DNA of 64,000 bases, taken from contig NMRA01000154.1 in the NCBI GenBank assembly GCA_002633005.1, positions 752,841 to 816,840 on the forward strand. Reading direction: 5' to 3'. Under the pieces are notes generated by a model. The model ran no database searches. It was not told the DNA's origin and saw nothing but the letters and a program-made list of their open reading frames with translations. Made by a program: the position numbers and the translations under genes. Source of the stretch: Phoronis australis (taxonomy: Eukaryota; Animalia; Phoronida). Shown here in pieces: positions 21,898 to 62,963 of the stretch (positions within the stretch are counted from its first letter, which is position 1; each line of letters opens with the position of its first letter).

Positions 21898-22653
21898 ATG
21901 GTTCAGACTATGGACTTCAACCTTAAGAGTGGTGAGCAGTTGCTGTTCACAAACTTCTCTAATGGCTGGATTATTGAGAAGTACTCCAACACTACAGCGC
22001 CCTGTGAAAGTTGGTTATTACTGCCTGGTGAAAACATGTGGTCTAGTGGTGTTCGATTCGTTCTCTATCTAATTGCCATGATCTATTTCTTTGTTGGTAT
22101 CGCCATTGGCAGTGATATATTTATGTGTAGTATAGAAGTGATCACGAGCAAAAAGAGAACAATAGTTCGTTACGATGAGGAGCGACAAGAACCAGTAAAA
22201 AAAGAGGTCCTCATTTGGAACGAGACAGTTGCTAACTTGACACTAATGGCGCTGGGCTCAAGTGCACCAGAAATCCTCATCGCCGTCATTGAAGCTGCTA
22301 GGGAACTGCCGGCGCCATACATACCTCGTGACAGTCTGGGTGTATTTACCATTATTGGTAGTGCATCTTTTAATCTACTCATCATTACTGCCATCTGTAT
22401 TGTGAGTGTGCCATCACCAGAAGTGAAGAAGATTCGGGAAGTGGGCGTGTTCATTCTGACCTCATTCTGGTCCATCTGGGCCTACGTCTGGGTTCTGCTC
22501 GTTGTCACCGTCTTCACGCCAGGGGTTATAGACATCTGGGAGGCATGTGTTACACTTGCCTTCTTCCCTGTCCTTGTGCTCACTGCCTGGATGGTTGACA
22601 ATGGCTTCTGGATTAAAAAGGCCAAAAAGGTTGATGTGCATGAAACCAATGAG
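21898..22653 (+). CDS. SLC8A: Na+/Ca2+ exchanger (NCX/SLC8 family), first coding exon: N-terminus, TM1-TM5, alpha-1 repeat
   Basis: Acceptor ttttttcag|21862, in-frame TGA before ATG 21898. [50 protein letters not shown] and [11 protein letters not shown] match NCX1 motifs. Donor GAG|GTAAGC, phase 0. Confidence 0.96.
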
Positions 22654-32609: not shown

Positions 32610-35600
32610 ATTACTAGTTGATCATTGGGCATATTGGAGTGTTGTAGCACCCTCTGTTGGCCTTTTTAGTTTTGACAAGATGTTGCTAATGTATTGTAGT
32701 TATTGCAAAATAATTTGACAGTTTTTGATAAAGAGGTGGGTACTGGATAGGAGGGTGTACTAACACCCTCGCACAGTATGATTATTTTTTGTGTTAAAGG
32801 TGTCTTGAGCGGCCTGCATCAGATTCTATGAATAAACAGCCGTCCAAAATGAAGTACCGGGGAATATTGTGTGTGTTGCAGACGTGGGCGCATTGCAAGG
32901 CCTTATTGCGTTCATATTGTCGTGGTCTTGAAGGTGGTGAATCTCATAGGTCGATGCACGTGGCAAATGTAAAATCCTTGACCACTCCGAGACAGTCAAG
33001 GCTTGAGCAGCCTCATACAAAACTTGAGAAACTCTGCCTGATAATTTTCCTAAATTAATTGGCTATCTCAGATGAATACAGAACTACCGCATGTCAGGGG
33101 TGATCTATCTGTGAACCAATAGGTGATCTATCTGTGATCCAGTAGGTGATCTGTCTGTGTACCAATAGGTGATTAGTCTGTCAATCAATACCTGATGTGT
33201 CTGATAATCAATTACTGATCTGTCTGACAATCCTTTGTGCTTGCCTCTGATTACATGTTACTGAGCATGTGTGGCTCATTGTGTATTCAATTATCGGAAC
33301 CTTGGCCACTTTGACCAGACATTGATAAATTACCAGTGATTATTGGAGGATTATCCTAGCTTCTTCTTGATGAAGATTAAAACTGAGTTTTGTTGACATT
33401 CCAGTGATTCAATTTTAAACTATTCTAAGGCTTTTCATTTCTCCATTCAAGGATTCAAATTTATGGGAGGAAAATTGTAATCATGGCTTACTGTCGCCAA
33501 CAAACTGGCTTGACCGAACAGCCAATTTCTGTATATAATTGATCAGTGTGCATCGTTAATGGAAAAGTGATTAGCCCCACTGCTCCATACATCAATTTGA
33601 AGTAAATAATTTAGTATTGGGACAAAAACGAATCTAAAAGCCCTTTCATACTGACTTGTCTCCGGTCTGAGTGTAGTGTCAACGTAAACTGCGATGTTAA
33701 CTAAACCATTCATATTGTCTTTAGTAGCTAACTGACATCGAAGTGAATGGTAGGTGACGCTGTTGTTATTGAAGTAATCGGAAGGTAGCGCTGATGCATT
33801 GTGTGCTAAGATTTTTTGTAACGTGACAAGTTAGGAACATTTACATGTCCTAATTGACATAAAACTTATTTCTAATTCAGTTGGTGCCTATTCGAGCAAA
33901 ATATAAGCAACTATTAGCGACGACACGTGCCCTTCAATTGTTGAAAATAAAGGTATTTTGAGGGGGACGCATATCCCATCGGTCGCTTTAATTGACAAAA
34001 TGAAGGCTATATGTAAGAAATTTAAGTTATTTGTTTCGATCATTTTTTAATTCTAGGGAAATTTATTAAGGTCTTCTTGAAAAGGGGGAACGTGAAGTTA
34101 GTTTGTAAAATTGATACAAGGTTTCATTGAGGGACGGCTTTTCCAGTGGGTGCTGCTGAAAGTACACTGTTTAATTGTTATCCAAATGTTAAGCTTAGAA
34201 TTTGGAAAATTTAGAAATTTTGGGGTTGCGCATTAATTATGGTGAGGTAAGGCTGCAAGACCACTGACAGCTGAAAGCTACAATGGCGGGGATACCTGCA
34301 ATCTTAACTGGTAGTTATTCTTGTGCGTACCTCATGGACTTTAAGTTTGTTCCGCAACAAGAGATCAGCTTTCGTTAAGACAGATCCAAGTAACCTATCG
34401 CAAGCTCCACCCCCTCCTTGCATAATGTCGACTAACAAACAATAACTTTTACCCGGCAACGTGTTGTTTGTCGGGTAAAATGGTGGCTTGGAAATAAAGG
34501 TGTGTCAAGAATGATGAGTTCTAAATGGTCAGTTAAGCCGTCACTCAAAATCCTGGTGATAGGTCAATTACAGCTATGCCCCTTTGTTGCGGTTTTGTCT
34601 TTGTATGTCTGCCTGCATGTGTACCTTCAAGTTTGTTGAAGAAACTTCACTAAATTTGCTCAATGTGCAGATAAAATTTGAATCTAATACTGAAAACAAA
34701 ACTTAATAAAGTTAGTGATGTTGCGTCCGTCTCTCACGGACNATTACTAGTTGATCATTGGGCATATTGGAGTGTTGTAGCACCCTCTGTTGGCCTTTTT
34801 AGTTTTGACAAGATGTTGCTAATGCATTGTAGTTATTGCAAAATAATTTGACAGTTTTTGATAAAGAGGTGGGTACTGGATATTTTCAGCTAAATAATAT
34901 TAAACACCCTCGCACAGTATGATTATTTTTTGTGTTAAAGGGGCCCTGAGAGGCCTGCATCAGATTCTATGAATAAACAGACGTCTAAAATGAAGTACCG
35001 GGGTATATTGTGTGTGTTGCAGACGTGGGCGCATTGCAAGGCCTTATTGCGTTCATATTGTCGTGGTCTTGAAGGTGGGGAATCTCATAGGTCGATGCAC
35101 GTGGCAAATGTAAAATCCTTGACCACTCCGAGACAGTTAGATCAAGGCTTGAGCAGCCTCATATAAAACTTGAGAAACTCTGCCTGATAATTTTCCTAAA
35201 TTAATTGGCTATCTCAGATGAATACAGAACTACCGCATGTCAGGGGTGATCTATCTGTGAACCAATAGGTGATCTATCTGTGATCCAGTAGGTGGTCTAT
35301 CTGTGAACCAATAGGTGATCTATCTGTGTACCAATAGGTGATTAGTCTGTCAATCAATACCTGATGTGTCCGATAATCAATTACTGATCTGTCTGACAAT
35401 CCTTTGTCCTTGCCTCTGATTACATGTTACTGAGCATGTGCGGTTCTTTGTGTATTTAATTATCCGAACCTTGGCCGCTTTGACCAGATATCGATAAATT
35501 ACCAGTGATTATTGGAGGATTATCCTAGGTTCTTCTTGATGAAGATTAAAACTTGACATTTCAGAGATTCAATTTTAAACTATTCTAAAGCTTGTGAAGA

Positions 35601-36397
35601 TTAAAGAGGCTTTTCATTTCTCCATTCAAGGATTCAAATTTATGGGAGGAAAATTGTAATCATGGCTTACTTTCGCCAACAAACTGGCATGACCGAACAG
35701 CCAGTTTCTGTATATAATTGATCAGTGCGCATCATTAATGGAAAAGTGATTAGCCCCACTGCTCCATACATCAATTTGTAGTAAATAATTTAGTAATGGG
35801 ACAAAAACGAATCTAAAGGCCCTTTCATACTGACTTGTCCCCGGTCTGAGTGGAATGTCGACGTAAACTGCGATGTTAACTAAACCATTCATACTGGCTT
35901 TAGCAGCTAACGGACATCGAAGTAAATGATAGGTGACGCTGTTGTTATCGAAGTAATCGGAAGGTAGCGCTGATGCATTGTGTGCTAAGATTTTTTAATG
36001 TGACAAGTTAGGAACATTTACATGTCCTAATTGACATAAAACTTATTTCTAATTCAGTTGGTGCTTATTCGAGCAAAATATAAGCAACTATTAGCGACGA
36101 CAGGTGCCCTTCAATTTGTGTTGTTTGTCGGGTAAAATGGCAGCTTGGATACAAAGGTGTGTCAAGAATGATGAGTTCTAAATGGTCAGTTAAGCCGTCA
36201 CTCAAAATCCTGGTGATAGGTCAATTACAGCTATGCCCCCTTGTTGCGGTTTTGTCTTTGTGTGTCTGCCTGCATGTGTACCTTCAAGTTTGTTGAAGAA
36301 ACTTCACTAAATTTGCTCAATGTGCAGATAAAATTGGAATCTAATACTGGAAACAAAACTTAATAAAGTTAGTGATGTTGCGTCCGTCTCTCACGGA
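32610..36397. repeat. Diverged direct duplication (32610-34740 vs 34743-36397) around a single n; probably two uncollapsed haplotypes
   Basis: Copy 2 restarts at attactagttgatc right after n34742. Scattered SNPs and indels, plus a ~520-bp indel. Confidence 0.85.
33098..33230. repeat. 23-bp VNTR (AGGTGATCTATCTGTGAACCAAT)
   Basis: Tandem units decay 3'-ward. The duplicate at ~35245-35400 has one more unit. Confidence 0.75.
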
Positions 36398-36952: not shown

Positions 36953-37062
36953 GCCATGCCTCATGTGAAGATAATTAACCAGGATCACCATGGCAGTGTG
37001 GTTCATCATCCTCATGGAAGGGAGCTGATCGCACTGGAGAATGAGAAGAAACTCAAGCACAG
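36953..37062 (+). CDS. SLC8A: NCX coding exon 2 (His-rich cytosolic linker: AMPHVKIINQDHHGSVVHHPHGRELIALENEKKLKH)
   Basis: tggtttcag| acceptor, CAG|GTAAAT donor. Phase 0 to 2 fits both neighbouring exons, and the frame is open. Confidence 0.75.
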
Positions 37063-37145
37063 GTAAATTGGGCAACGGTTCATGCTTCACGTGACACACA
37101 TGCACTAACACGTGAATGGAGATGGGGCTGCTTCACATATCACAC

Positions 37146-41356: not shown

Positions 41357-42131
41357 ATTATAAACCTTTGTTGTTGTAATAAGCTTAGCTTTGGGTGATG
41401 TGGGACTAATTCTGTTGTTGTCTTTCTACAAACTCTACTTGTATAAGTATAATGTATTTGGTCTCTATTCTTGTCTGCCTTTATACCTTTCTCAATAAAA
41501 TCTAATCAATTCATGTTCAAATCATCTTTGATGATGCTTTTCAAACCTATTGGACACATCCTGTACCATTATATACAGTCAGTAACTGCTGATGGTGGAG
41601 GACTCCCTGGTTAACTGTTATCTGCTCAAAATCTTGTTTTAACAAATCGTCTTTGATCAACCAGTGCCTCTAAAGTGTTAAATACCACCAGTTCGTACTT
41701 CCAACACCCTTAGTCCTGTTCAAACACAGCTTACCCTGGAACANATTGTAAATCTTTGTTGTTGTAATAAGCTTAGCTTTGGGTGATGTGGGACTAATTC
41801 TGTTGTTGTCTTTCTACAAACTCTACTTGTATAAGTATGATGTATTTGGTCTCTATTCTTGTCTGCCTTTATACCTTTCTCAATAAAATCTAATCAATTC
41901 ATGTTCAAATCATCTTTGATGATGCTTTTCAAACCTATTGGACACATCCTGTACCATTATATACAGTCAGTAACTGCTGATGGTGGAGGACTCCCTGGTT
42001 AACTGTTATCTGCTCAAAATCTTGTTTTAACAAATCGTCTTTGATCAACCAGTGCCTCTAAAGTGTTAAATACCACCAGTTCGTACTTCCAACACCCTTA
42101 GTCCTGTTCAAACACAGCTTACCCTGGAACA
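41357..42131. repeat. 387-bp near-identical direct duplication around a single n (41744); probable assembly overlap
   Basis: 41357-41743 vs 41745-42131, only about 3 substitutions. Confidence 0.9.
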
Positions 42132-42823
42132 ACTTGCTCTAATGCAACTTACCCCACTTTTAAGTGGAGAGTCCACACACACACATGTCCTGATAACTTA
42201 GGGTAAGGCGGAAGTTGTCACTCATTCCCAAGTCTTATTTCGCGCTCAAAAGTATGGTGGATTTTAACACTGACTTTAACCATAGGCTAGAAGTTCATTA
42301 TATTTCCATATTCTGCATTCTCGATCTCTCTCAATTAATGGATTAACAGATTACATAACTAATGGCAACAGTGGAAAAATAATCAATTTCAATTGTGAAC
42401 GTTTTGCTCAACAGAGGATCACCATGTGAACTAGGACAATTTCTCTCTGATTTCACACTGAAATTATTGCCAATGGTTATCATTTAACAGTGGTTACGTT
42501 GCTCGAAAGTTTGTCAAATGTTGTTTTATGTCACCTGCACAGTATACCTTGAGCTAATTACTGGCCAAATTTTTCTTTATTTTTTTTGTTGAGCATTTTC
42601 ATAAAATAAAATTTCACTTGTCCACCTTATTGTGCGCTAAATATATGGGGAACAATGAGAGCAACCTAGTTACAACTTGTCTTTAATCATGGCCTGTGTA
42701 GACTTTTTCTGTTTATTAATTTTGCGTTGTTTGCTATTGTTCCAGTCATTATAAGCACCGGTTTTCATGAGTATCAGGTCTCCAATTTACTTCTAGAAAC
42801 AAAGCTCAGAATACTCTGTTATC

Positions 42824-49117: not shown

Positions 49118-49848
49118 TTGTCCCTTACATATAGGGGTAGAGGGGTGTAACATGTATTGGTAGAGGGGTATCACTTACGTGTATTGGTAGAGGGTGTCCC
49201 TTACATGTATTGGTGGAGGGGTGTCCGTTACGTGTATTGTTAGAGGGGTATCCCTTACGTGTATTGGTAGAAGGTGTCACATATATTGGTAGAAGGTGTC
49301 CCTTACTTGTATTGATAGAGGGTGTCCCTCACATGTATTGGTTTGGGGTGTCCCTCACATGTATGGTAGATGGGTGTCCCTTAATGCATTGGTAGAGGGA
49401 TATCCCTTACGTGTATTGGTTGAGGGGTATCCCTTACGTGTATTGGTAGAGGGGTGTCCCTTACGTTACGTGTATTGGTAGAGAGGTGTCCGTTACGTGT
49501 ATTGGTAGAGGGTTGTCCCTTACATTATTGATAGAGGGGTGGCCCTTACACATGTATTGATAGAGGGTGTCCCATATGTGTATTGGTAGAGGGGTGTCCA
49601 TTACGTGTATTGGTAGAGGGGTGTCCCTTACATGTATTGATAGAGGGGTGTCCCTTACATGTATTGATAGAGGGTGCCCCTTATGTGTATTGGTAGAGGG
49701 GTGTCCATTACGTGTATTGGTAGAGGGGCGTCCCTTACATGTATTGGTAGAGGGGCGTCCCTTACGTGTATTAGTGGAAAGGTGTCCCTTACATAATTTT
49801 GTTGATGGAGAAGTGTCCCTTACGTACATTGGTAGAGGGGTTTACCTA
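49118..49848. repeat. 27-bp minisatellite (CCCTTACGTGTATTGGTAGAGGGGTGT), about 27 units
   Basis: Contiguous 26-27-bp units with no unique spacers. Explains the repetitive ORFs at 49210-49992. Confidence 0.95.
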
Positions 49849-52800
49849 GCATGTAAAGGGTTTCTTTACTGGCACGTGTCTGAAACTGCATGGTTTTATG
49901 CCCTTTGTCTATTTTTAGAATACTTTAATCACATGGATTATTTCATTGTAATATTTAGGGCTTGGTTTGTTAACTTTTCTAAAGAATATTAACCACTGAG
50001 GAACAACCGTAGTACGTCTACTGATGATTTTTGTATATTAGACACCGAACTTCCATGACTGTGCAGCTATGTCTCCATCTGTGAGATCTTTGTGAATTAT
50101 GACAATTGTATTCCTTTGAATGTGTGAACATATCAAAGCTTCTTTTTGACATATCTGATTACTGCTGTGCCTTGTGGTGACGATTTTATTTTTTACCTCT
50201 GTCTCTGCATTTTGGAGTTCCATTTGGGATTTTCATAAAATTTGGCTTAAATAGGCTTGACTCCATTAGGGAGATGAAATTTTCTCATTTTCAGATGGCT
50301 TCAATATATTCTGTGCCCCTAGTTCAGATCTACACGATATCCTCTCAAATTAGCAAAATCCAGGGGCCCAATCCAAAAAAGCAACTTACCTAAGACAAAT
50401 CTTAAAATTTAAGTCAATTTTAAGATAAAACTCCACTTTGTCTTAAGTCTGTTCTAGGAAAGTGATCTTAAGTTTGTCTTAAGTTTTTGATGTTTTGTCT
50501 AATATCACTAACACACCGGATGTGGAAGTTTTAAAGTTTGGAAGCGGAGACAAATCTTAGACTTTAGTCAAAAACAAACTTAAGTCAGTTTCTTGGAACA
50601 TGTCCCAAATCTACCGTAGATCATATGACCCCCCCAAAGAACAAAGTCCAGATCTATATTATGTGCCCCCTCAAATAGCAAAGACATTATTCCTTGTCAA
50701 ATTTCTAAGAAGTGAGTTTGTGGCTTGGAAGGTTTGCCATTGTTTGAGTCCACTTAGTTCTACAAGACTAAAGTTGGCTTGTCATGCACCGAGCATGGTC
50801 CCAATCCAAGCTTAGAAACTACTTCTCATGCGAGTTAGAAACAAGTTGAGATCAGTTTTCTAGAGGTGAGTAATCAAAAGTTAGTTTCATTGACAAGATG
50901 CGAGTTTAAAGCCACTTTTAAAAGTGCAAAAACTGCTGGTCAGGAAACATATCAACTGAGCAATGCACAATAGGATATAATGCTGCAGTGCTACCACAAA
51001 ACAATAACATGAGGATGTTGTGTATTACATTAGGTGAAGTCCCATCAACCTGTATCCATTATACAGATGGTGTTTCCATGTGCTGGACCAATGTTTGTGT
51101 CATCCAATAAAGTGATTAAATGAACACCATGATGTGTTATCTAAATGATTTGCAATGTTTATTAAGGGCTTTGAGTTTGTAATATTTTTGTTCCCTTGTT
51201 TCTGTTGTAGAAAGTGTATCACGCACTTAGTGTTTGCTGCTGTGGCATCTTGGTCTAACTAATTTAGTTACAGCTTTGAAAGTCACTTACCGAACTTTAG
51301 TTTAAAAGTTTGCATCTCTGTATTTTGAATATGTAATAAGTTTGTTAGCCTTCGTGTGCGTTTTAGAGCTCATGGTTTTGTAATTAAAAGTAACTGCTTT
51401 ACTATCATTTATAGTAATTGTTACTATTCTAGTTTTCATTTGCATACTTAAACATCGGATGCTTGTCACAAGTAGCCGCCATTGGTTAATTGAATGGTGT
51501 TAAAAATGATTACAGGTGACTAGATTGTCAACGGGTTTTAAATTTAATTACTACACATTAGACATGATTATCAACTGAAACCTTTAATGCAGAAAATTTT
51601 TAATGTGCTTTTTGTTCCAATGGTGGTCATTTGTGTTTATTTACGTGTCTCTAACAATATTTTGCTTTTTTTCTTTTGCATTGCCTTGTGACTCTAACAG
51701 ACTCAGGTACAAGCTACACTCTGCTTGTTGTATGGTGTGATGTTATTATAACTACAGAGGTCGCCACAGTAGCACAGCATGATGCCTGTGGCACGTCTGC
51801 AACAGAAACTTGACTGAGAAACTGCCAACTGTCAATTTTGAAACAGCAGTTTACTGATTAGCTGTTCTAAAGCACTTGAAATGCAGTTTGAAAGTTTGTT
51901 TTATCTATGGTCATAAATCCAGTGGTAGCTAAGTGGGTCTTGGGCAGTGTGCTTTTCAGAGCAGCAAAAATGTTGCAACTACATAAAGTTGATAATTTAT
52001 TTTATTAACGACTAACTTCAAAAGCCCCGATACTGAACTGTTCGCAAATTGATATCGAAGTTGTGACTGTCTTAGCTCAAGCCCTGACTTGTGACCTTGC
52101 GATAAAACAGGCCCACGATGAAATTTGTAAAATTTAAAATTTAATAAGAGTCAAGTTTGAGTTGCATTTCCTCCAGCATGCTATGTGCTTTTCACTTCCA
52201 CTAAACACTTTGTATTGTTTTATTGGAGATCACTTGGACGAATGCTATTTAAGTTAAATGTATTGGTGTTTGGACGAATTAAGAAGTCCTTACGTTACTA
52301 CTGTAAATCTAATCCTTGTCATGCTACCTGAATTCCTCAGTTGTCACCTCCTTAATGTCTTGCTAATACTTTTGAATGAAATGATACTTTTCTGTTGTGC
52401 AGAAATGACTGCCCTTTTGTCTACAGTACTTAATGTGTTACCCAGTCCGTAAACCAATTAAAACAATAGTGTTCCTGAAGATAGATTTCATTTTGCTTCA
52501 ACGATTTCCATTCAAAATCTGTTTCTAATGTTGAAGACACCAAAGTTTGGCAGTTGATTGGGTTATATGTGGCTGTATACAATTTGGATTGTTTTCTCTG
52601 AAATTTCTTGTTCTTACTGTTTTCCCTCTGTTGGCGTCTGTTGTCTCTGTCTCAGTAATTAACTAAAACATACTAATTGTGCCCAAGGCATGTGGGATGG
52701 AGATCTAATAGCTTAACAAATTAATGTTTTGCGAAAATGATGATATGTGTGTAAAATTTTCATGAGATAATTACAATTTGGACTAGTAAATTCTTAGAAT

Positions 52801-53089
52801 CATTAAATTGGTGATTTAAATTTTTTACTTCCCCATAGTTGTCGTTCCCTAGTCCATTAATGCAACATGTTTTGCCCTATGTGACCTGGTGTTGTGTCAT
52901 GCCATACCTTATGACAAAACCCTTCCCATATGACAAATCCCTTCCCATAATTCACCGTCTGTGCATTTAGATACTCGCACATTTTTTGCACATTTTGCCA
53001 CCACAGAGTTACTCGACTTAGATTTTGTGAGGCAATCTTCAAATAAATATCACTGATCTGTTGATGTAAGCTCTTTTTCTCTCTTGTAG

Positions 53090-53223
53090 ATTCCGCCATG
53101 CTGCCATCAATTCCATTCTTGGTCACAAAAAGTCTCACTCCAGGCCTATAACACCCAAACCCAAAATGGTTGGCATAGTGGACCAAGTTCGTGCCAACTC
53201 ACAGTTGAATCAGATGAATGAAG
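53090..53223 (+). CDS. SLC8A: NCX coding exon 4 (RFRHAAINSILGHKKSHSRPITPKPKMVGIVDQVRANSQLNQMNE)
   Basis: ctttttctctcttgtag| acceptor, AAG|GTAAAG donor, phase 2 to 1, open frame. Confidence 0.85.
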
Positions 53224-53623
53224 GTAAAGAATTGTACTTCAAATGAATTAATGACAGTGTTTCATTTTTATGTGCCTATGTAAACATGTACATATCATAT
53301 GGGCGTCGAGTGTTTGCTGCTATATCTCCTAAGCCGCTAGCACGATCTTTATGAGATTTGGGGGATGTGTTTCTGTGAAGCTGACGACAGATACGACGAC
53401 AAGTTTTGGACAGATCCAGTCACTGCTGTACTCCTTAGAAGTAATTCTCTTTTTACCATTTGCGTCTGTATTTTTGGGGTTGCTTGTCGGATTTTCATAA
53501 AATTTCATAAACAAGTATGGGGGAGTTGGCTAGCTCTTCCCACCTGCAAACGGGTTTGACAAATTTTGTAGTACCTAATGCGTATCACCACCATAGGAAG
53601 CATACTGTTTGCGATGCAGTCGT

Positions 53624-53775: not shown

Positions 53776-54137
53776 GTCGTTGGAACATTTCAGTGCTTTG
53801 TATTCTTGTTAAATATCTGGTGATTTAACTGAACGAGTGCAAATGTCAAACTTTTTTTTGACAAAACACTTGGACAATTTATGTAAACTTTAAATATATC
53901 AGCAAATCTATGCAGTATGACAAATACTGTACTGGAAAATTACAAAATTTAATTCTATAGGGTATTACAATTTTGGGCTTGATACTCAATCTGTCTACGA
54001 CTGTCAAGACTAAGTCCTTGGCTTATTCTAGTCTTCTAGTCAACACTACAATGCAGCTCCGTATTCAGTTGGATCTAACTATCCAAGTTAAAGTCCAGTG
54101 GGTACTGTGACATTTTGTGTTATATTGTTCATTACAG

Positions 54138-54237
54138 AGGATATGTGCGGCAAGTTTACCTTTGCTGCACCAAGCTATTCTGTTCTGGAGAGTGCTGGCA
54201 CGCTGGAAGTGGATGTGTTGTTTCACCGCAAGAAAAT
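54138..54237 (+). CDS. SLC8A: NCX coding exon 5: Calx-beta CBD1 strands A-B ([33 protein letters not shown])
   Basis: F.F....Y.V.E..G...V.V Calx-beta motif. ttacag| acceptor, AT|GTGAGT donor, phase 1 to 2. Confidence 0.92.
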
Positions 54238-54664
54238 GTGAGTGTTTATAAGTGATCTTAGAGCTCGCGAGGGCTCCTAAAAATTCAGTGTTACCGTGAT
54301 TTGGTACTCAAAGTGTATCTCTGCTGTCTTAGTTGTTGTGGACATTTTTATTCCGCTGTGGTTTTCTCAGTGGATAATGTTCCCACTGTAGTGGTGGTCG
54401 TCAGCTCAGTTTTTGTAATCGATGTAGGATTCGTGCTAGTTTTGAATGGTACCTCATAAGCTTTTCAGTTATCCTTTCAGAATTGTATAATATTATGTTG
54501 TATGCTGAACCTATTTGAGTCAAATTTCTTCTGACCTATCTAACGTCTTCACGGCACTGAACAAGAAAATCTATAATGTGTGAGATGAAATTATCAATAA
54601 AAAAACAAACGAAATGTTGACTTTTGCATGTGGAAATCAATTTGTTTTAAATTTTGTTTTTCAG

Positions 54665-55268: not shown

Positions 55269-55448
55269 AATGGTGGAACTGCCATTGCCAACAACAACAC
55301 TGACGAAAAGGAAACCACTCTAACAGAAGTTACACCTATGGACAGGGAACTGGAAGACATTATCACAGGAGTTGTCTCAGTTGATTTTGAGACACGCGAA
55401 GGAACTGCTAAGATGGACAAAGATTTCAAATTTGCTCAAGGAAAACTG
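55269..55448 (+). CDS. SLC8A: NCX exon: CBD1 insertion plus strands C-D (NGGTAIANNNTDEKE...GVVSVDFETREGTAKMDKDFKFAQGKL)
   Basis: V.VDF.T.EGTA....DF....G.L Calx-beta motif. ttttctcag| acceptor, CTG|GTAAGC donor, phase 0-0. Confidence 0.93.
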
Positions 55449-55819: not shown

Positions 55820-57000
55820 CTTATGTGCCACCTCCCCCCCAGGCTTTATATTGCCGTCATAAGCTCTGTTTGGGCATCTGGTGTAGGCTGTTGTATCTCC
55901 TAAATTCCTTGCCCGATTTTCATGAGATTCAGTAGAGTCGACGTGTTCCTTTGAAGCTAACTGCAGATGAGTTTCGGACTGAACCGATTGCTGCTGTTAC
56001 CCCTTAGTAGCAGATTTGGTTTTTTAACTTTGCTTCTGTTTCTACCAAGTTCCTTGACAGCTTTTTTCAAAAAATGGCAAACAGGTTTCTACTGAAACAC
56101 CAGCAGCTTTCGAATGCATTTGACGATTTTCAACCCCTGTCGGTCATCTTAATTTATTTTTAGTCTGCTTCTCTATTTGCCAAATCCCTTGAAGGCCATG
56201 ATTGGGAAGTTTGGAAGATATATTCTTATTGAGGAGAGCACTTCTGACATTGATTTTTCGACAGGTATTGCTACTGTGGTGTCCCCTAGTGGCAATTTTT
56301 CTTTTTGCCTTGTTTTAGTAGTGCCTCAGTATCTACTAAGTTTGTTGATGGACCCGAGTATTGTGCTGTTTCCTTGTGGAAATTATGATTTTCTTTACAT
56401 CTGCCTCAGTATTTACCAACTTCCTTCTATGGAACTTGGTGTAATAGAGCATATGTGCTCCTACACTCCTTATTCTGAAAATTGTATCTCGTATAATGGT
56501 TCCAGATTTTAGTTAATATATGTCTTATACAAGGATGGTAGTATGTTCCCATTTTTGGATGGATATAAAGTATTCTGTGCTCCTTGTGACCAATTTTTTA
56601 TTACTTTTACCTGCTTCTGTGGCATTTGCTTCTATATAGTCGCCAAAGTGCTTGAAGGATCATTTTGAAAATTGACGGGTTTGTTCCTAGTGAGAAGACT
56701 GACTTTGATATTCAGATGGTTCTATCTATTGTGGCACTCTGTAGGTGCATGTATTTCATCCGCGGCTATATTTCCTTTATCCTTTGTGGGATGTCTGTGG
56801 CAAGTGTTTCCCAGGAATGTGAGAACAACTTTACTTTTGGACATATCTGTGCCCCCTAGTGGCAGTTTAATTTTTTACCACGGCCTGTTTTATTTGACAG
56901 ATTTTCAGGAATTACAGAGACAACAACACCTTTTAAACTGTGGAGAGATTTGATTATTCTGTGCCACCTAGTGGCCATTTTTAGATTTGTGCATCAATTA
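55820..57000 (+). mobile_element. HINE/DINE-1-like repeat with degenerate internal subunits
   Basis: Recurrent ttcatgaRatt / cccctagtggcaatttt / ccacctagtggccatttt motifs shared with 20785-21430 and 60878-62020. Confidence 0.5.
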
Positions 57001-57565: not shown

Positions 57566-57728
57566 ATTTTCCACGAGGAAGAATTCTGTAAAACCATCTC
57601 CATACCCATAGTGGCTGATCACCAGTGGGAGGGAGACAATGAGTTTTACGTTATTTTGAAAAACCCACAAGGTGACTCGGGCCTTGGGGACCCCAGTGTT
57701 ACACGCGTCCTGATTATTGATGATGACG
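57566..57728 (+). CDS. SLC8A: NCX alternative exon A, CBD1 strands D'-G (IFHEEEFCKTISIPIVADHQWEGDNEFYVILKNPQGDSGLGDPSVTRVLIIDDD)
   Basis: tgttttag| acceptor, G|GTAGGT donor, 163 nt, phase 0 to 1. Calx-beta F...E..K.I.I.I..D...E.DE.F and LG.PS...V.I.DDD motifs. Confidence 0.9.
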
Positions 57729-58000
57729 GTAGGTGCAGACATGGTTTGAAAAGATCGCTTGATCGGCTTGGGTATGAGCAACTTCAAATTTAGCAAGCCA
57801 AGTGATTTTTATCAAAATAACTTTTTAGCTGCCGTAGTTGTGTTGAGCACCAATTGGTGCATTATACTGGCAGTGAGACTTGTAAAACAGATGGACAGAA
57901 ATTTTATTTTTTTTTTAAGTTGCTCAGGCTTGCTGATTAAGTGACTTGTTTGTTATGAGTTTGTGTGTGTTTTCAAAGATACCACATTTGTTCATTTTAG

Positions 58001-58163
58001 GTATTTGCAGAGCACGAGTATAGGAAGACAATTTCGGTTCCGATTATCAACGATTTGAATTTCCATAATAATGTTGAGTTCTACGTTATATTAAAAAATC
58101 CCGATGGGGACGCGGGTATTGGCGACCCAAGCATCACCCGTTGCACAATAGTTGATGATGATG
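58001..58163 (+). CDS. SLC8A: NCX alternative exon B, paralogue of exon A (VFAEHEYRKTISVPIINDLNFHNNVEFYVILKNPDGDAGIGDPSITRCTIVDDD)
   Basis: ttcattttag| acceptor, G|GTAAGA donor, 163 nt, phase 0 to 1. 32/54 aa identical to exon A, no stops. Confidence 0.9.
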
Positions 58164-60877: not shown

Positions 60878-62020
60878 TTTATGCGCCTACGATATATGGC
60901 GTCATCCCCATCCATCCGTCCATAAGGCGTCCACTTCTGTATCTTCAATACCCCTTCATGGATTTTGTGAAATTTTGCAGACATGCTTGTGTCATGAATG
61001 AGACAACACAAATGAATTGTTTTGACAGATCTGACCACCGCTGTTCCTCCTAATGGCCATTTCATTTTTTTATGTTTGTCTCAGTCTGTAAATTAAAGAT
61101 CTTTCCTTGACGAATTTCCATCTGTGACGGATTCAACATAGCACCACTTAGTGGCCATTTTACTGTGGCACCCCGTAGTGGCTGTTTTTGCTAAGACCCC
61201 TGCAAGATATTTGTTAAATTTGGCAAGTGTATTTCTATGAACGGGACAATGGATAACGGCAACTTTCGGACATAATTGCAGCAACAGTTGTACTTCATCC
61301 CTGGTGGTAATTTTAGTTTTTCACTGTCTTTTGTATATTCAAAATTCCTTGATTAATTTTCATGAAATTTGGCAATAAGTTTACTTTTTTGGATGAATTT
61401 GCGCAAATAGTGTGCCACCTACTAGCCATTTTTATTATTTTTTTCAAATTTCATTTTGGTGTCTGCCTTCTATCTCCAAACCACTAAGAATTGATAATGA
61501 AAATTTATTTGGTAATTGTGTTTCTTCTGGAAAGTTCCTGGCAAAACATGATGTTTGGACAGACTTACTGATGTGGTGCCCTCTATTGACAATTTTGTTG
61601 TTTTTGCCTCAGTGGTTCCATATCTACCATGTACCTCAATAGATAGTCTTGAAATTTATACGTGGTTTTATTGAGGAGAATATAAGTGATGCGAATTTTG
61701 TGTCAAATTTAACTACTGTGGAATCTCCTACAGGCAATGTTTGTCTTTGCGTTTGCCTGAATATCAAGTTCTATGATGCATGTTCATGAAATTTGGCTAA
61801 TAAGTTACTATCATGAACACATCACAAACCCTGTTGCAGACGGATTTGACCTACATTGCCCCCCTACCGGCCTTTTTATTGTTTTTTGTCTGTTCTTTGT
61901 TGTCCTCCCCATAATCTTCCAAACTTTGTGGAGAATCGTGATGAAAATTGACAAGTGTGTTCCTATTAAGGAAAGCATTGCTGACTTCTTTTGCACCCTA
62001 TAGGGGTTATTGTTTTAAAC
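60878..62020 (+). mobile_element. HINE/DINE-1/Pearl-like repeat with degenerate internal subunits
   Basis: Begins tttatgcgcc...ccatccatccgtcc, then repeated (t)catgaaatttggc and ccacYtagtggccatttt units. Confidence 0.55.
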
Positions 62021-62839: not shown

Positions 62840-62963
62840 AACCTGGGGAGTTCACTTTTGAAAAATCTCATTTGTACGCTGACCCCAGCAATGGGGTCGC
62901 TACGGCAACTGTGATGCGGCAGAAAGGCTGTGATGGGACTGTTACTATAGAGTTCTCAACAAT
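62840..62963 (+). CDS. SLC8A: NCX exon: start of Calx-beta CBD2 (EPGEFTFEKSHLYADPSNGVATATVMRQKGCDGTVTIEFST); gene continues beyond the window
   Basis: ctttttcag| acceptor in phase 1, matching exon A or B. AT|GTAAGT donor. Aligns with NCX1 HAGIFTFEEPVTHVSESIGIMEVKVLRTSGARGNVIVPYKT. Confidence 0.92.

Follow-up and report, generated by a model that had tools for sequence, protein, structure and literature searches.

In the window analysed here (64,000 nucleotides of the Phoronis australis contig NMRA01000154.1), two adjacent homologous exons, A and B, each encode strands E-F-G of CBD1, a Calx-beta domain in the cytosolic loop of an NCX-like (SLC8) exchanger of the non-vertebrate type. The 5′ two-thirds of this gene lies inside the window. 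The locus raises the question of whether the two exons are alternatives to each other and, if so, of what their exchange would do to calcium binding by CBD1. An earlier note, with NCX1 as its reference, had answered that A would give a reduced but Ca2+-responsive domain and B a Ca2+-weak or pH/His-modulated one.

The gene and its surroundings

Judging from its alpha-1 motifs, its Pfam Na_Ca_ex match and its pair of Calx-beta domains, the gene appears to belong to the NCX/SLC8 family and would encode a putative exchanger. The first large coding exon carries the alpha-1 repeat motifs GSSAPE and GSASFN and is directly followed by a donor GT (Table 1). The cytosolic loop contains the tandem Calx-beta domains CBD1-CBD2, the window including the first CBD2 exon only. 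The alpha-2 repeat region lies beyond the window end; NCX-like alpha-2 motifs are found in most of the 42 relatives used below as subfamily representatives, most of which have NCX-like motifs in both alpha repeats. As regards the XIP/beta-hub, the alignment of a relative to NCX1 ends where TM5 ends.

Table 1. Features of the exchanger gene, in window coordinates.
Feature	Position	Strand	Evidence
First large coding exon, 250 codons: TM1-5 and alpha-1 repeat	21898..22653	+	Pfam Na_Ca_ex, E 9e-22
Cytosolic-loop exon, likely coding, limits approximate	36953..37063	+	weak tblastn, 7/46 subfamily proteins, best E 0.013
Coding exon upstream of CBD1, RFRHAA motif, limits approximate	53076..53243	+	tblastn, 27/46 proteins, best E 6e-7
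CBD1 strands A-B exon	54137..54238 (approx.)	+	tblastn, 46/46 proteins
E385 equivalent	~54188-54190	+	E in 34/42 representatives
CBD1 strands C-D exon, phase 0 at 3′ end	55269..55448	+	sequence comparison
D421 equivalent (in the strands C-D exon)	55422-55424	+	sequence comparison
Exon A, CBD1 strands E-F-G, 163 nt, phase 0 to 1	57566..57728	+	AG/GT, frame; Pfam Calx-beta 64-119, E 2e-8
Exon A, E-F loop: Ala446 (57614-57616), Asp447, His448, Trp450, Glu451 (57629-57631), Asp453, Asn454	57611..57640	+	alignment to 3US9 and CALX
Intron between exons A and B, 272 nt, 19 internal AGs	57729..58000	+	sequence
Exon B, CBD1 strands E-F-G, 163 nt, phase 0 to 1	58001..58163	+	AG/GT, frame; Pfam Calx-beta 64-119, E 4e-6
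Exon B, E-F loop: Asn446 (58049-58051), Asp447, Phe450, His451 (58064-58066), Asn453, Val454 (58073-58075)	58046..58075	+	alignment to 3US9 and CALX
First CBD2 exon, phase 1 start; Glu at the H501 position, Asp (62932-62934) at the R532 position	62840..62963	+	sequence comparison

Several other features of the window were recorded. Near-identical tandem duplications adjoin single Ns at 41357-42136 (N at 41744; 392 nt at 98.7%) and 32610-36397 (N at 34742; ~1.4 kb at 91% and 280 nt at 97%), a pattern that suggests overlap between contig ends or the joining of two haplotypes during assembly. A minisatellite at 49119-49855 comprises ~26 copies of a 27-nt unit and gives rise to false ORFs in both orientations. 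Dispersed short repeats with a CCACCTAGTGGCC-like core are found in the introns on either side of the exon pair (55900-57000 and 61000-61900); this CCACCTAGTGGCC-core family is probably a degenerate mobile element. A GC-richer stretch at 170-1373 has ORFs of 130-156 codons and resembles a retroelement remnant; the three of its ORFs that were tested gave no Pfam match.

Relatives and placement

The first large exon shares 56-69% identity with invertebrate SLC8-like proteins among the best 120 of its 4885 matches. Those of the 120 with a named source are spread over placozoans, cnidarians, molluscs, annelids, nemerteans, a brachiopod, a bryozoan, echinoderms, hemichordates, amphioxus and a tunicate; no protein among them carries a vertebrate or arthropod name. 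When 37 N-terminal halves are placed in a tree, the gene pairs with that of the bryozoan Watersipora (97/93), both branches being fairly long; this pairing points to a lophotrochozoan source, likely close to bryozoans, and the bryozoan protein is the closest relative found. Nothing near-identical to exon A or B was found in the search with the first exon (proteins of 439-2000 aa) or in the searches with the A+B alignment (24 matches among 60 candidates, and 3/3).

Two comparison sets were built. The subfamily baseline consists of 42 representatives, that is, 58 different exon sequences thinned to less than 48/54 identity, themselves drawn from 184 proteins after removal of two non-family matches and of proteins without the segment. 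The wider Calx-beta set (975/981 repeats from 150 proteins) was collected with the A+B profile; the cluster-representative search is dominated by multi-repeat Calx-beta proteins and was used purely as background.

Published trees include NCX subfamilies that were retained by invertebrates and lost in vertebrates (PMC6987452; PMC6209159). We infer from the taxon range of its matches that the phoronid gene has its place among them. It resembles oyster clusters 2/3 (PMC6987452) and coral NCXB (PMC6209159) in its range from placozoans and cnidarians to a tunicate, without vertebrate names among the best 120 matches; the likeness is one of description, not of accession, and the passages concerned of these two papers deal with neither CBD1 ligands nor a duplicated exon. 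For most invertebrate genes of this kind, On et al. predicted that NCX function is absent (PMC2408596). The alpha-repeat motifs kept in the subfamily would argue against simply assuming that exchanger function has been lost.

Age and splicing of the exon pair

Exons A and B are identical at 94/162 nucleotides and 32/54 residues, and 22 of the 32 identical residues are encoded by different codons. Silent sites are saturated (pS 0.93-0.96), whereas pN is 0.29 overall, 0.19 outside the E-F loop and 0.69 in the loop. This contrast between saturated pS and a pN of 0.19 outside the loop indicates that both copies are under purifying selection. In simulations of neutral decay, a stop-free copy with at least 32/54 identity was obtained in 0/5000 trials at d = 0.5 and likewise at d = 1.0; 5.8% of the trials passed at d = 0.3, a distance far under the observed silent divergence. 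With pS saturated, the loop pN of 0.69 is indistinguishable from neutral drift. The two duplications beside single Ns show that the assembly does have faults of the kind that could place two haplotypes in tandem. However, no N occurs near A or B, their flanking introns share no homology, and their silent sites are saturated, so that the duplication must be old and not artefactual. Since both exons are moreover stop-free, have intact splice sites and share no more than 94/162 nucleotides, we consider it extremely improbable that the pair is an assembly artefact or that one copy is a dead pseudo-exon.

No third copy of the exon was found within the window. Relatives show a single exon form in 20 clusters (118 of the 130 listed members carry the segment, with variants differing by at most three residues; in the two largest clusters 15/30 and 15/32 members are listed, and annotation might miss a minor exon). 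Single-exon ORFs from other contigs also seem to start and end at the same points as the 163-nt exon. The ancestral state is therefore likely to be one exon of 163 nt, and the duplication, as far as present data reach, appears limited to one lineage. A tree of the 54-residue exon neither recovers nor rejects A and B as one clade (p-AU 0.2), which leaves the duplication undatable against the split from Watersipora. It should be added that the Watersipora isoforms P0084 and P0168 differ by a seven-residue insert at the junction immediately upstream of the E-F-G exon; the intron upstream of this exon is thus also alternatively spliced in Watersipora.

Mutually exclusive splicing of A and B is likely from their layout: they are adjacent and homologous, of equal phase and of 163 nt each, with intact AG/GT, as is expected of such exons. 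Either exon alone reads into the next exon, and both together or neither lead to a stop. Exclusivity would then be kept by frame, the products with both exons or with neither having a premature stop and being removed by nonsense-mediated decay. Steric exclusion is unlikely, because the spacing is too long (a 272-nt spacer with its many internal AGs and a branch-point-like CTGAT 65 nt upstream of B). Searches for RNA docking/selector pairing gave best values of -19.4 and -22.0 kcal/mol, within those of shuffled controls (six shuffles each), and no telling inverted repeat was found. A second acceptor-like AG lies 10 nt inside exon B (58001-58010), and A joined to it gives a 316-nt product that is in frame and stop-free through the next exon. 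The two exons could thus be spliced together into a tandem E-F-G repeat instead of excluding each other. However, codons 1-3 of B encode conserved strand-D residues, including Phe2 (42/42), that are used with the first AG only, and an orphan three-strand repeat would presumably be unable to complete a Calx-beta fold. We regard this arrangement, or a bare residual use of one copy, as very unlikely, and it is highly probable that both exons are functional and alternately used.

Divergence is concentrated on the E-F loop

As the earlier note had observed, exon positions 16-25 are identical at one of ten residues only (Asp18), while EFYVILKNP, GDPS, Arg47, Ile50 and DDD are the same in A and B. 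Its assignment of this divergent segment to the Ca2+-ligand E-F loop is confirmed by the alignments and by a structural model. The alignment to NCX1, whose register is fixed by the Lys of 3US9, an E454K construct, runs through the loop without gap, and that to CALX CBD1 is gap-free over 43 residues; the numbering of the loop is therefore secure. AlphaFold predicts for the Watersipora protein (mean pLDDT 78) a fold best matched by NCX1 cryo-EM, CBD12 and CBD1 structures; the coil that links its strands 473-480 and 490-500 corresponds to exon positions 16-24, which gives the fixed loop window an independent ground.

The loop holds more differences than expected by chance. For at least nine of the 22 differences to fall in this fixed window, P is 0.0006 under uniform shuffling and 0.004 with subfamily site rates; for any 10-residue window, the values are 0.018 and 0.033, respectively. 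Among orthologue pairs, which are not independent of each other, at least nine loop differences are reached by 8/395 of those with 10-16 differences outside the loop and by 15/375 of those with 18-26 differences in total. The loop is slightly more variable than the rest of the exon among the 42 representatives (0.53 vs 0.39).

Ligand positions compared with the subfamily

Ligands were assigned to A and B by transfer through sequence alignment. Neither exon provides, with its common scaffold, the full NCX1/CALX CBD1 set (E385, D421, D446, D447, E451, E454, D498-500). The equivalents of E385, D421 and D498-500 are present and common to both isoforms, as the earlier note stated. It was also right that A retains the D447, E451 and D453 equivalents, D453 being outside the NCX1 ligand list as given in PMC3386913, and that B retains D447, with His at 451 and Val at 454. 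We can add that A also lacks D446 (Ala) and E454 (Asn). In total, the loop contains four acids in A and two in B.

The subfamily gives these residues another meaning. At position 446, 32 of the 42 representatives have Asn and none has Asp or Ala; Asp occupies 447 in 33; position 451 is Glu in 29, His in one (Trichoplax) and another residue in 12; at 454 Val is modal (n = 14) and no acid occurs; and Asp is found in 42, 41 and 41 at positions 498, 499 and 500. Most bilaterian members, across phyla, keep an N-D-x-Q-Y/F-E-x-D loop. Among the 975 Calx-beta repeats, position 446 is most commonly Asn (43%), then Asp (33%) and seldom Ala (3%, 30/975), and Glu makes up 93% of position 451 and 89% of position 454. 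The loss of D446 and E454 is thus subfamily-wide, and Asn446 and Val454 of B are of ancestral type. Consequently, the statement that B keeps only D447 was an undercount, its Asn446 being the subfamily norm and Ala446 of A having no counterpart among the 42, and the change of E454 to Val is not a property of B. In NCX1 itself, the E454K protein, in which Lys454 takes the place of Ca1, is regulated like wild type (PMC3386913). Against these counts, NCX1 is the wrong baseline for judging the loop states of A and B. The notable changes are His451, Asn449 and Leu448 for B, and Ala446, His448, Trp450 and Asn454 for A; on this comparison, A is as derived as B, the two having left the ancestral state at complementary places. 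His451 is the exceptional residue (0/975 Calx-beta repeats), although E451 is missing from the sole exon form of 13/42 representatives, which indicates that site 451 is labile.

Some relatives depart further from the consensus. Seven proteins, some of them cnidarian (P0055, P0056, P0058, P0068, P0083, P0087 and P0091), replace N446-D447 by His/Cys/Pro/Tyr and lack E451 but keep D498-500; these His-rich loops might bind another metal. Of two Babylonia areolata proteins on different contigs (P0035 and P0054), one has the consensus loop, and the loop of the other is fully degenerate. They are likely paralogues, a gene duplication having yielded a split that resembles the A/B exon pair.

Coupling to CBD2 and pH sensing

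The claim that A is Ca2+-responsive presumes the coupling of NCX1, in which Arg532 is the linchpin tying Ca3/Ca4 to CBD2 (PMC3386913). This position is acidic in all 42 representatives (Asp in 41, Glu in one) as in the phoronid gene, so that the Arg532 interdomain tether is missing. The His501 position, Glu in this gene, is an acid in 31/42. In the 14 rows listed of the 42, the E-F loop of CBD2 is short and basic instead of acidic, and E516 is absent from the listed column counts of the subfamily alignment. Phe450 forms the core of the hydrophobic CBD1-CBD2 contact of NCX1 (PMC3386913); exon A has Trp there. With no acidic loop in CBD2, the sole candidate Ca2+ sensor is CBD1, and the relay known from NCX1 should not be assumed for it. 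We may speculate that Ca2+ would bridge D499/D500/E501 to Asp532.

The pH modulation that the earlier note attributed to the His of B is without precedent in what we have seen. NCX1 devoid of residues 446-499 is still proton-sensitive, its sensors being His124 and His165 (PMC5806679), and A also has a histidine in its loop (His448). The position of His165 is never His in 46 subfamily proteins (Glu/Asp/Gln); this would leave room for another pH sensor and lends no support to His451.

Predicted calcium binding and its alternative readings

According to the coordination described for NCX1 CBD1 (PMC3386913), Ca2 is bound by E385 and E451, and by D421 in isolated CBD1, Ca3 by E385, D447, I449, E451, D498 and D500, and Ca4 by E385, D446, D447, D499 and D500. 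By transfer, A would keep full Ca2 and Ca3 sets (E385, D421, D447, E451, D498, D500), lose the 446 side chain of Ca4 and have Trp at 450; B would lose Ca1/Ca2 and, through His451, one Ca3 ligand, and would keep Ca4 in its subfamily form (E385, Asn446, D447, D499, D500). Since E451 serves as ligand for up to three ions in NCX1 (PMC9820601, section 5.1) and B has half the loop acids of A, fewer ions in B is the better bet: B probably binds fewer ions than A, and there is a good chance that the isoforms differ in some way in Ca2+ binding. The qualification of B as Ca2+-weak is therefore a fair prediction as regards the number of bound ions, given also the rarity of His451, but it overlooks the Ca4 set that B keeps. 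The reading that we favour, at roughly even chances, is that a tandem duplication gave rise to two E-F-G exons, likely used either/or, which set differently tuned loops on the same scaffold, with B binding fewer ions without being calcium-blind. Exon choice would then change the metal load and the stiffness of the CBD1-CBD2 hinge instead of operating the salt-bridge switch of NCX1, a hinge output being suggested by the lack of an acidic loop in CBD2 and by Asp at 532.

Two other readings have to be weighed against this retuning. The pair could be an on/off switch, as with NCX1 CBD2 exons A and B, with A a working Ca2+ sensor and B either Ca2+-weak or gated by protonation of His451. The role of E451 as ligand of up to three ions, the unparalleled His451, the two loop acids of B against four, the position of CBD1 as sole candidate sensor and the absence of His at the 165 position, which would place any pH sensor elsewhere, all speak for it. 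However, Arg532 is missing, and the Ca4 set is kept by B while A loses one of its ligands. Mutation of E451 or D421 is reported to have had little effect, and that of D446 a strong one, in work by Ottolia in 2009; if so, B would even be favoured over A as the regulated form. Furthermore, Ca3 and Ca4 are the CBD1 sites reported as crucial for regulation (PMC11237548; PMC5806679), the loss of E454 is silent in the E454K protein (PMC3386913), and the pH sensitivity of NCX1 survives deletion of 446-499 (PMC5806679). An on/off switch thus seems unlikely, its His/pH part being unsupported. Alternatively, CBD1 of this subfamily may be no Ca2+ regulator at all, its loop having drifted or having been tuned for contact with a partner or with CBD2, and the isoforms would then be equal in Ca2+ response. 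The absence of D446, of any acid at 454 and of Arg532 from all 42 representatives, the loss of E451 in 13, the fully degenerate loops of cnidarian members and of one Babylonia paralogue, a loop pN close to pS and the prediction of On et al. for most such genes (PMC2408596) would fit this. Nevertheless, it agrees poorly with a consensus loop kept by most bilaterian members across phyla, with the near invariance of D498-500, with equal loop divergence in just 8/395 matched orthologue pairs and with the NCX-like alpha-repeat motifs of most of the 42, and we consider it improbable. Retuning of both isoforms therefore appears to be the best reading of the residues involved.

Comparison with known systems and significance

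A choice between two homologous exons that encode the Ca2+-ligand E-F loop of one Calx-beta domain is known from NCX1 and NCX3, in which these exons set the number of Ca2+ sites of CBD2 (PMC9820601, section 5.2). The parallel drawn in the earlier note with the Ca2+-binding and non-binding exons of NCX1 holds as an analogy, since the same loop is concerned, but it concerns another domain. The phoronid pair lies in CBD1, is wider (strands E-F-G, including D498-500) and belongs to another subfamily; it likely arose independently of the NCX1/NCX3 exons. With CBD1 of NCX1 and Drosophila CALX (3US9, 2DPK, 3GIN, 3EAD, 3RB5), both isoforms share the fold, a gap-free loop and E385, D421, D447 and D498-500; unlike them, they lack D446 and E454, as do 42/42 representatives, and have Asp for R532. 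A review assigns four sites to CBD1 in every orthologue and splice variant and describes splicing as confined to CBD2 (PMC9820601). Our literature search, which covered a minority of the subscription papers, found nothing on mutually exclusive exons in CBD1 nor on Ca2+ binding or regulation in this subfamily. By analogy, the A/B system would work like exons A and B of NCX1/NCX3 yet is no member of that system.

A bolder proposal, which we hold to be doubtful, is that a lophotrochozoan lineage independently invented vertebrate-style exon switching of NCX sensing and placed it on CBD1. CBD2 would be calcium-blind, a cadherin-like Ca2+ bridge between D499/D500/E501 and Asp532 would take the place of the Arg532 salt bridge, the sole allosteric sensor would be switched by the choice of exon, and His451 might add control by pH or transition metals.

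Published views disagree on the division of CBD1 sites into regulatory and structural ones (PMC3386913, PMC11237548, PMC10550945), one cryo-EM proposal being that CBD1 Ca2+ is mainly structural and stiffens the hinge (PMC10550945). Isoforms that differ at 446, 450, 451, 453 and 454 on one scaffold would offer a natural test of this distinction. The pair would also illustrate convergent duplication of exons that encode the same loop, in one lineage so far and with a function assigned by analogy. Overall, this locus draws attention to a widespread invertebrate NCX subfamily, without Arg532 and with a basic CBD2 loop, whose CBD12 module is unlike those of NCX1 and CALX.
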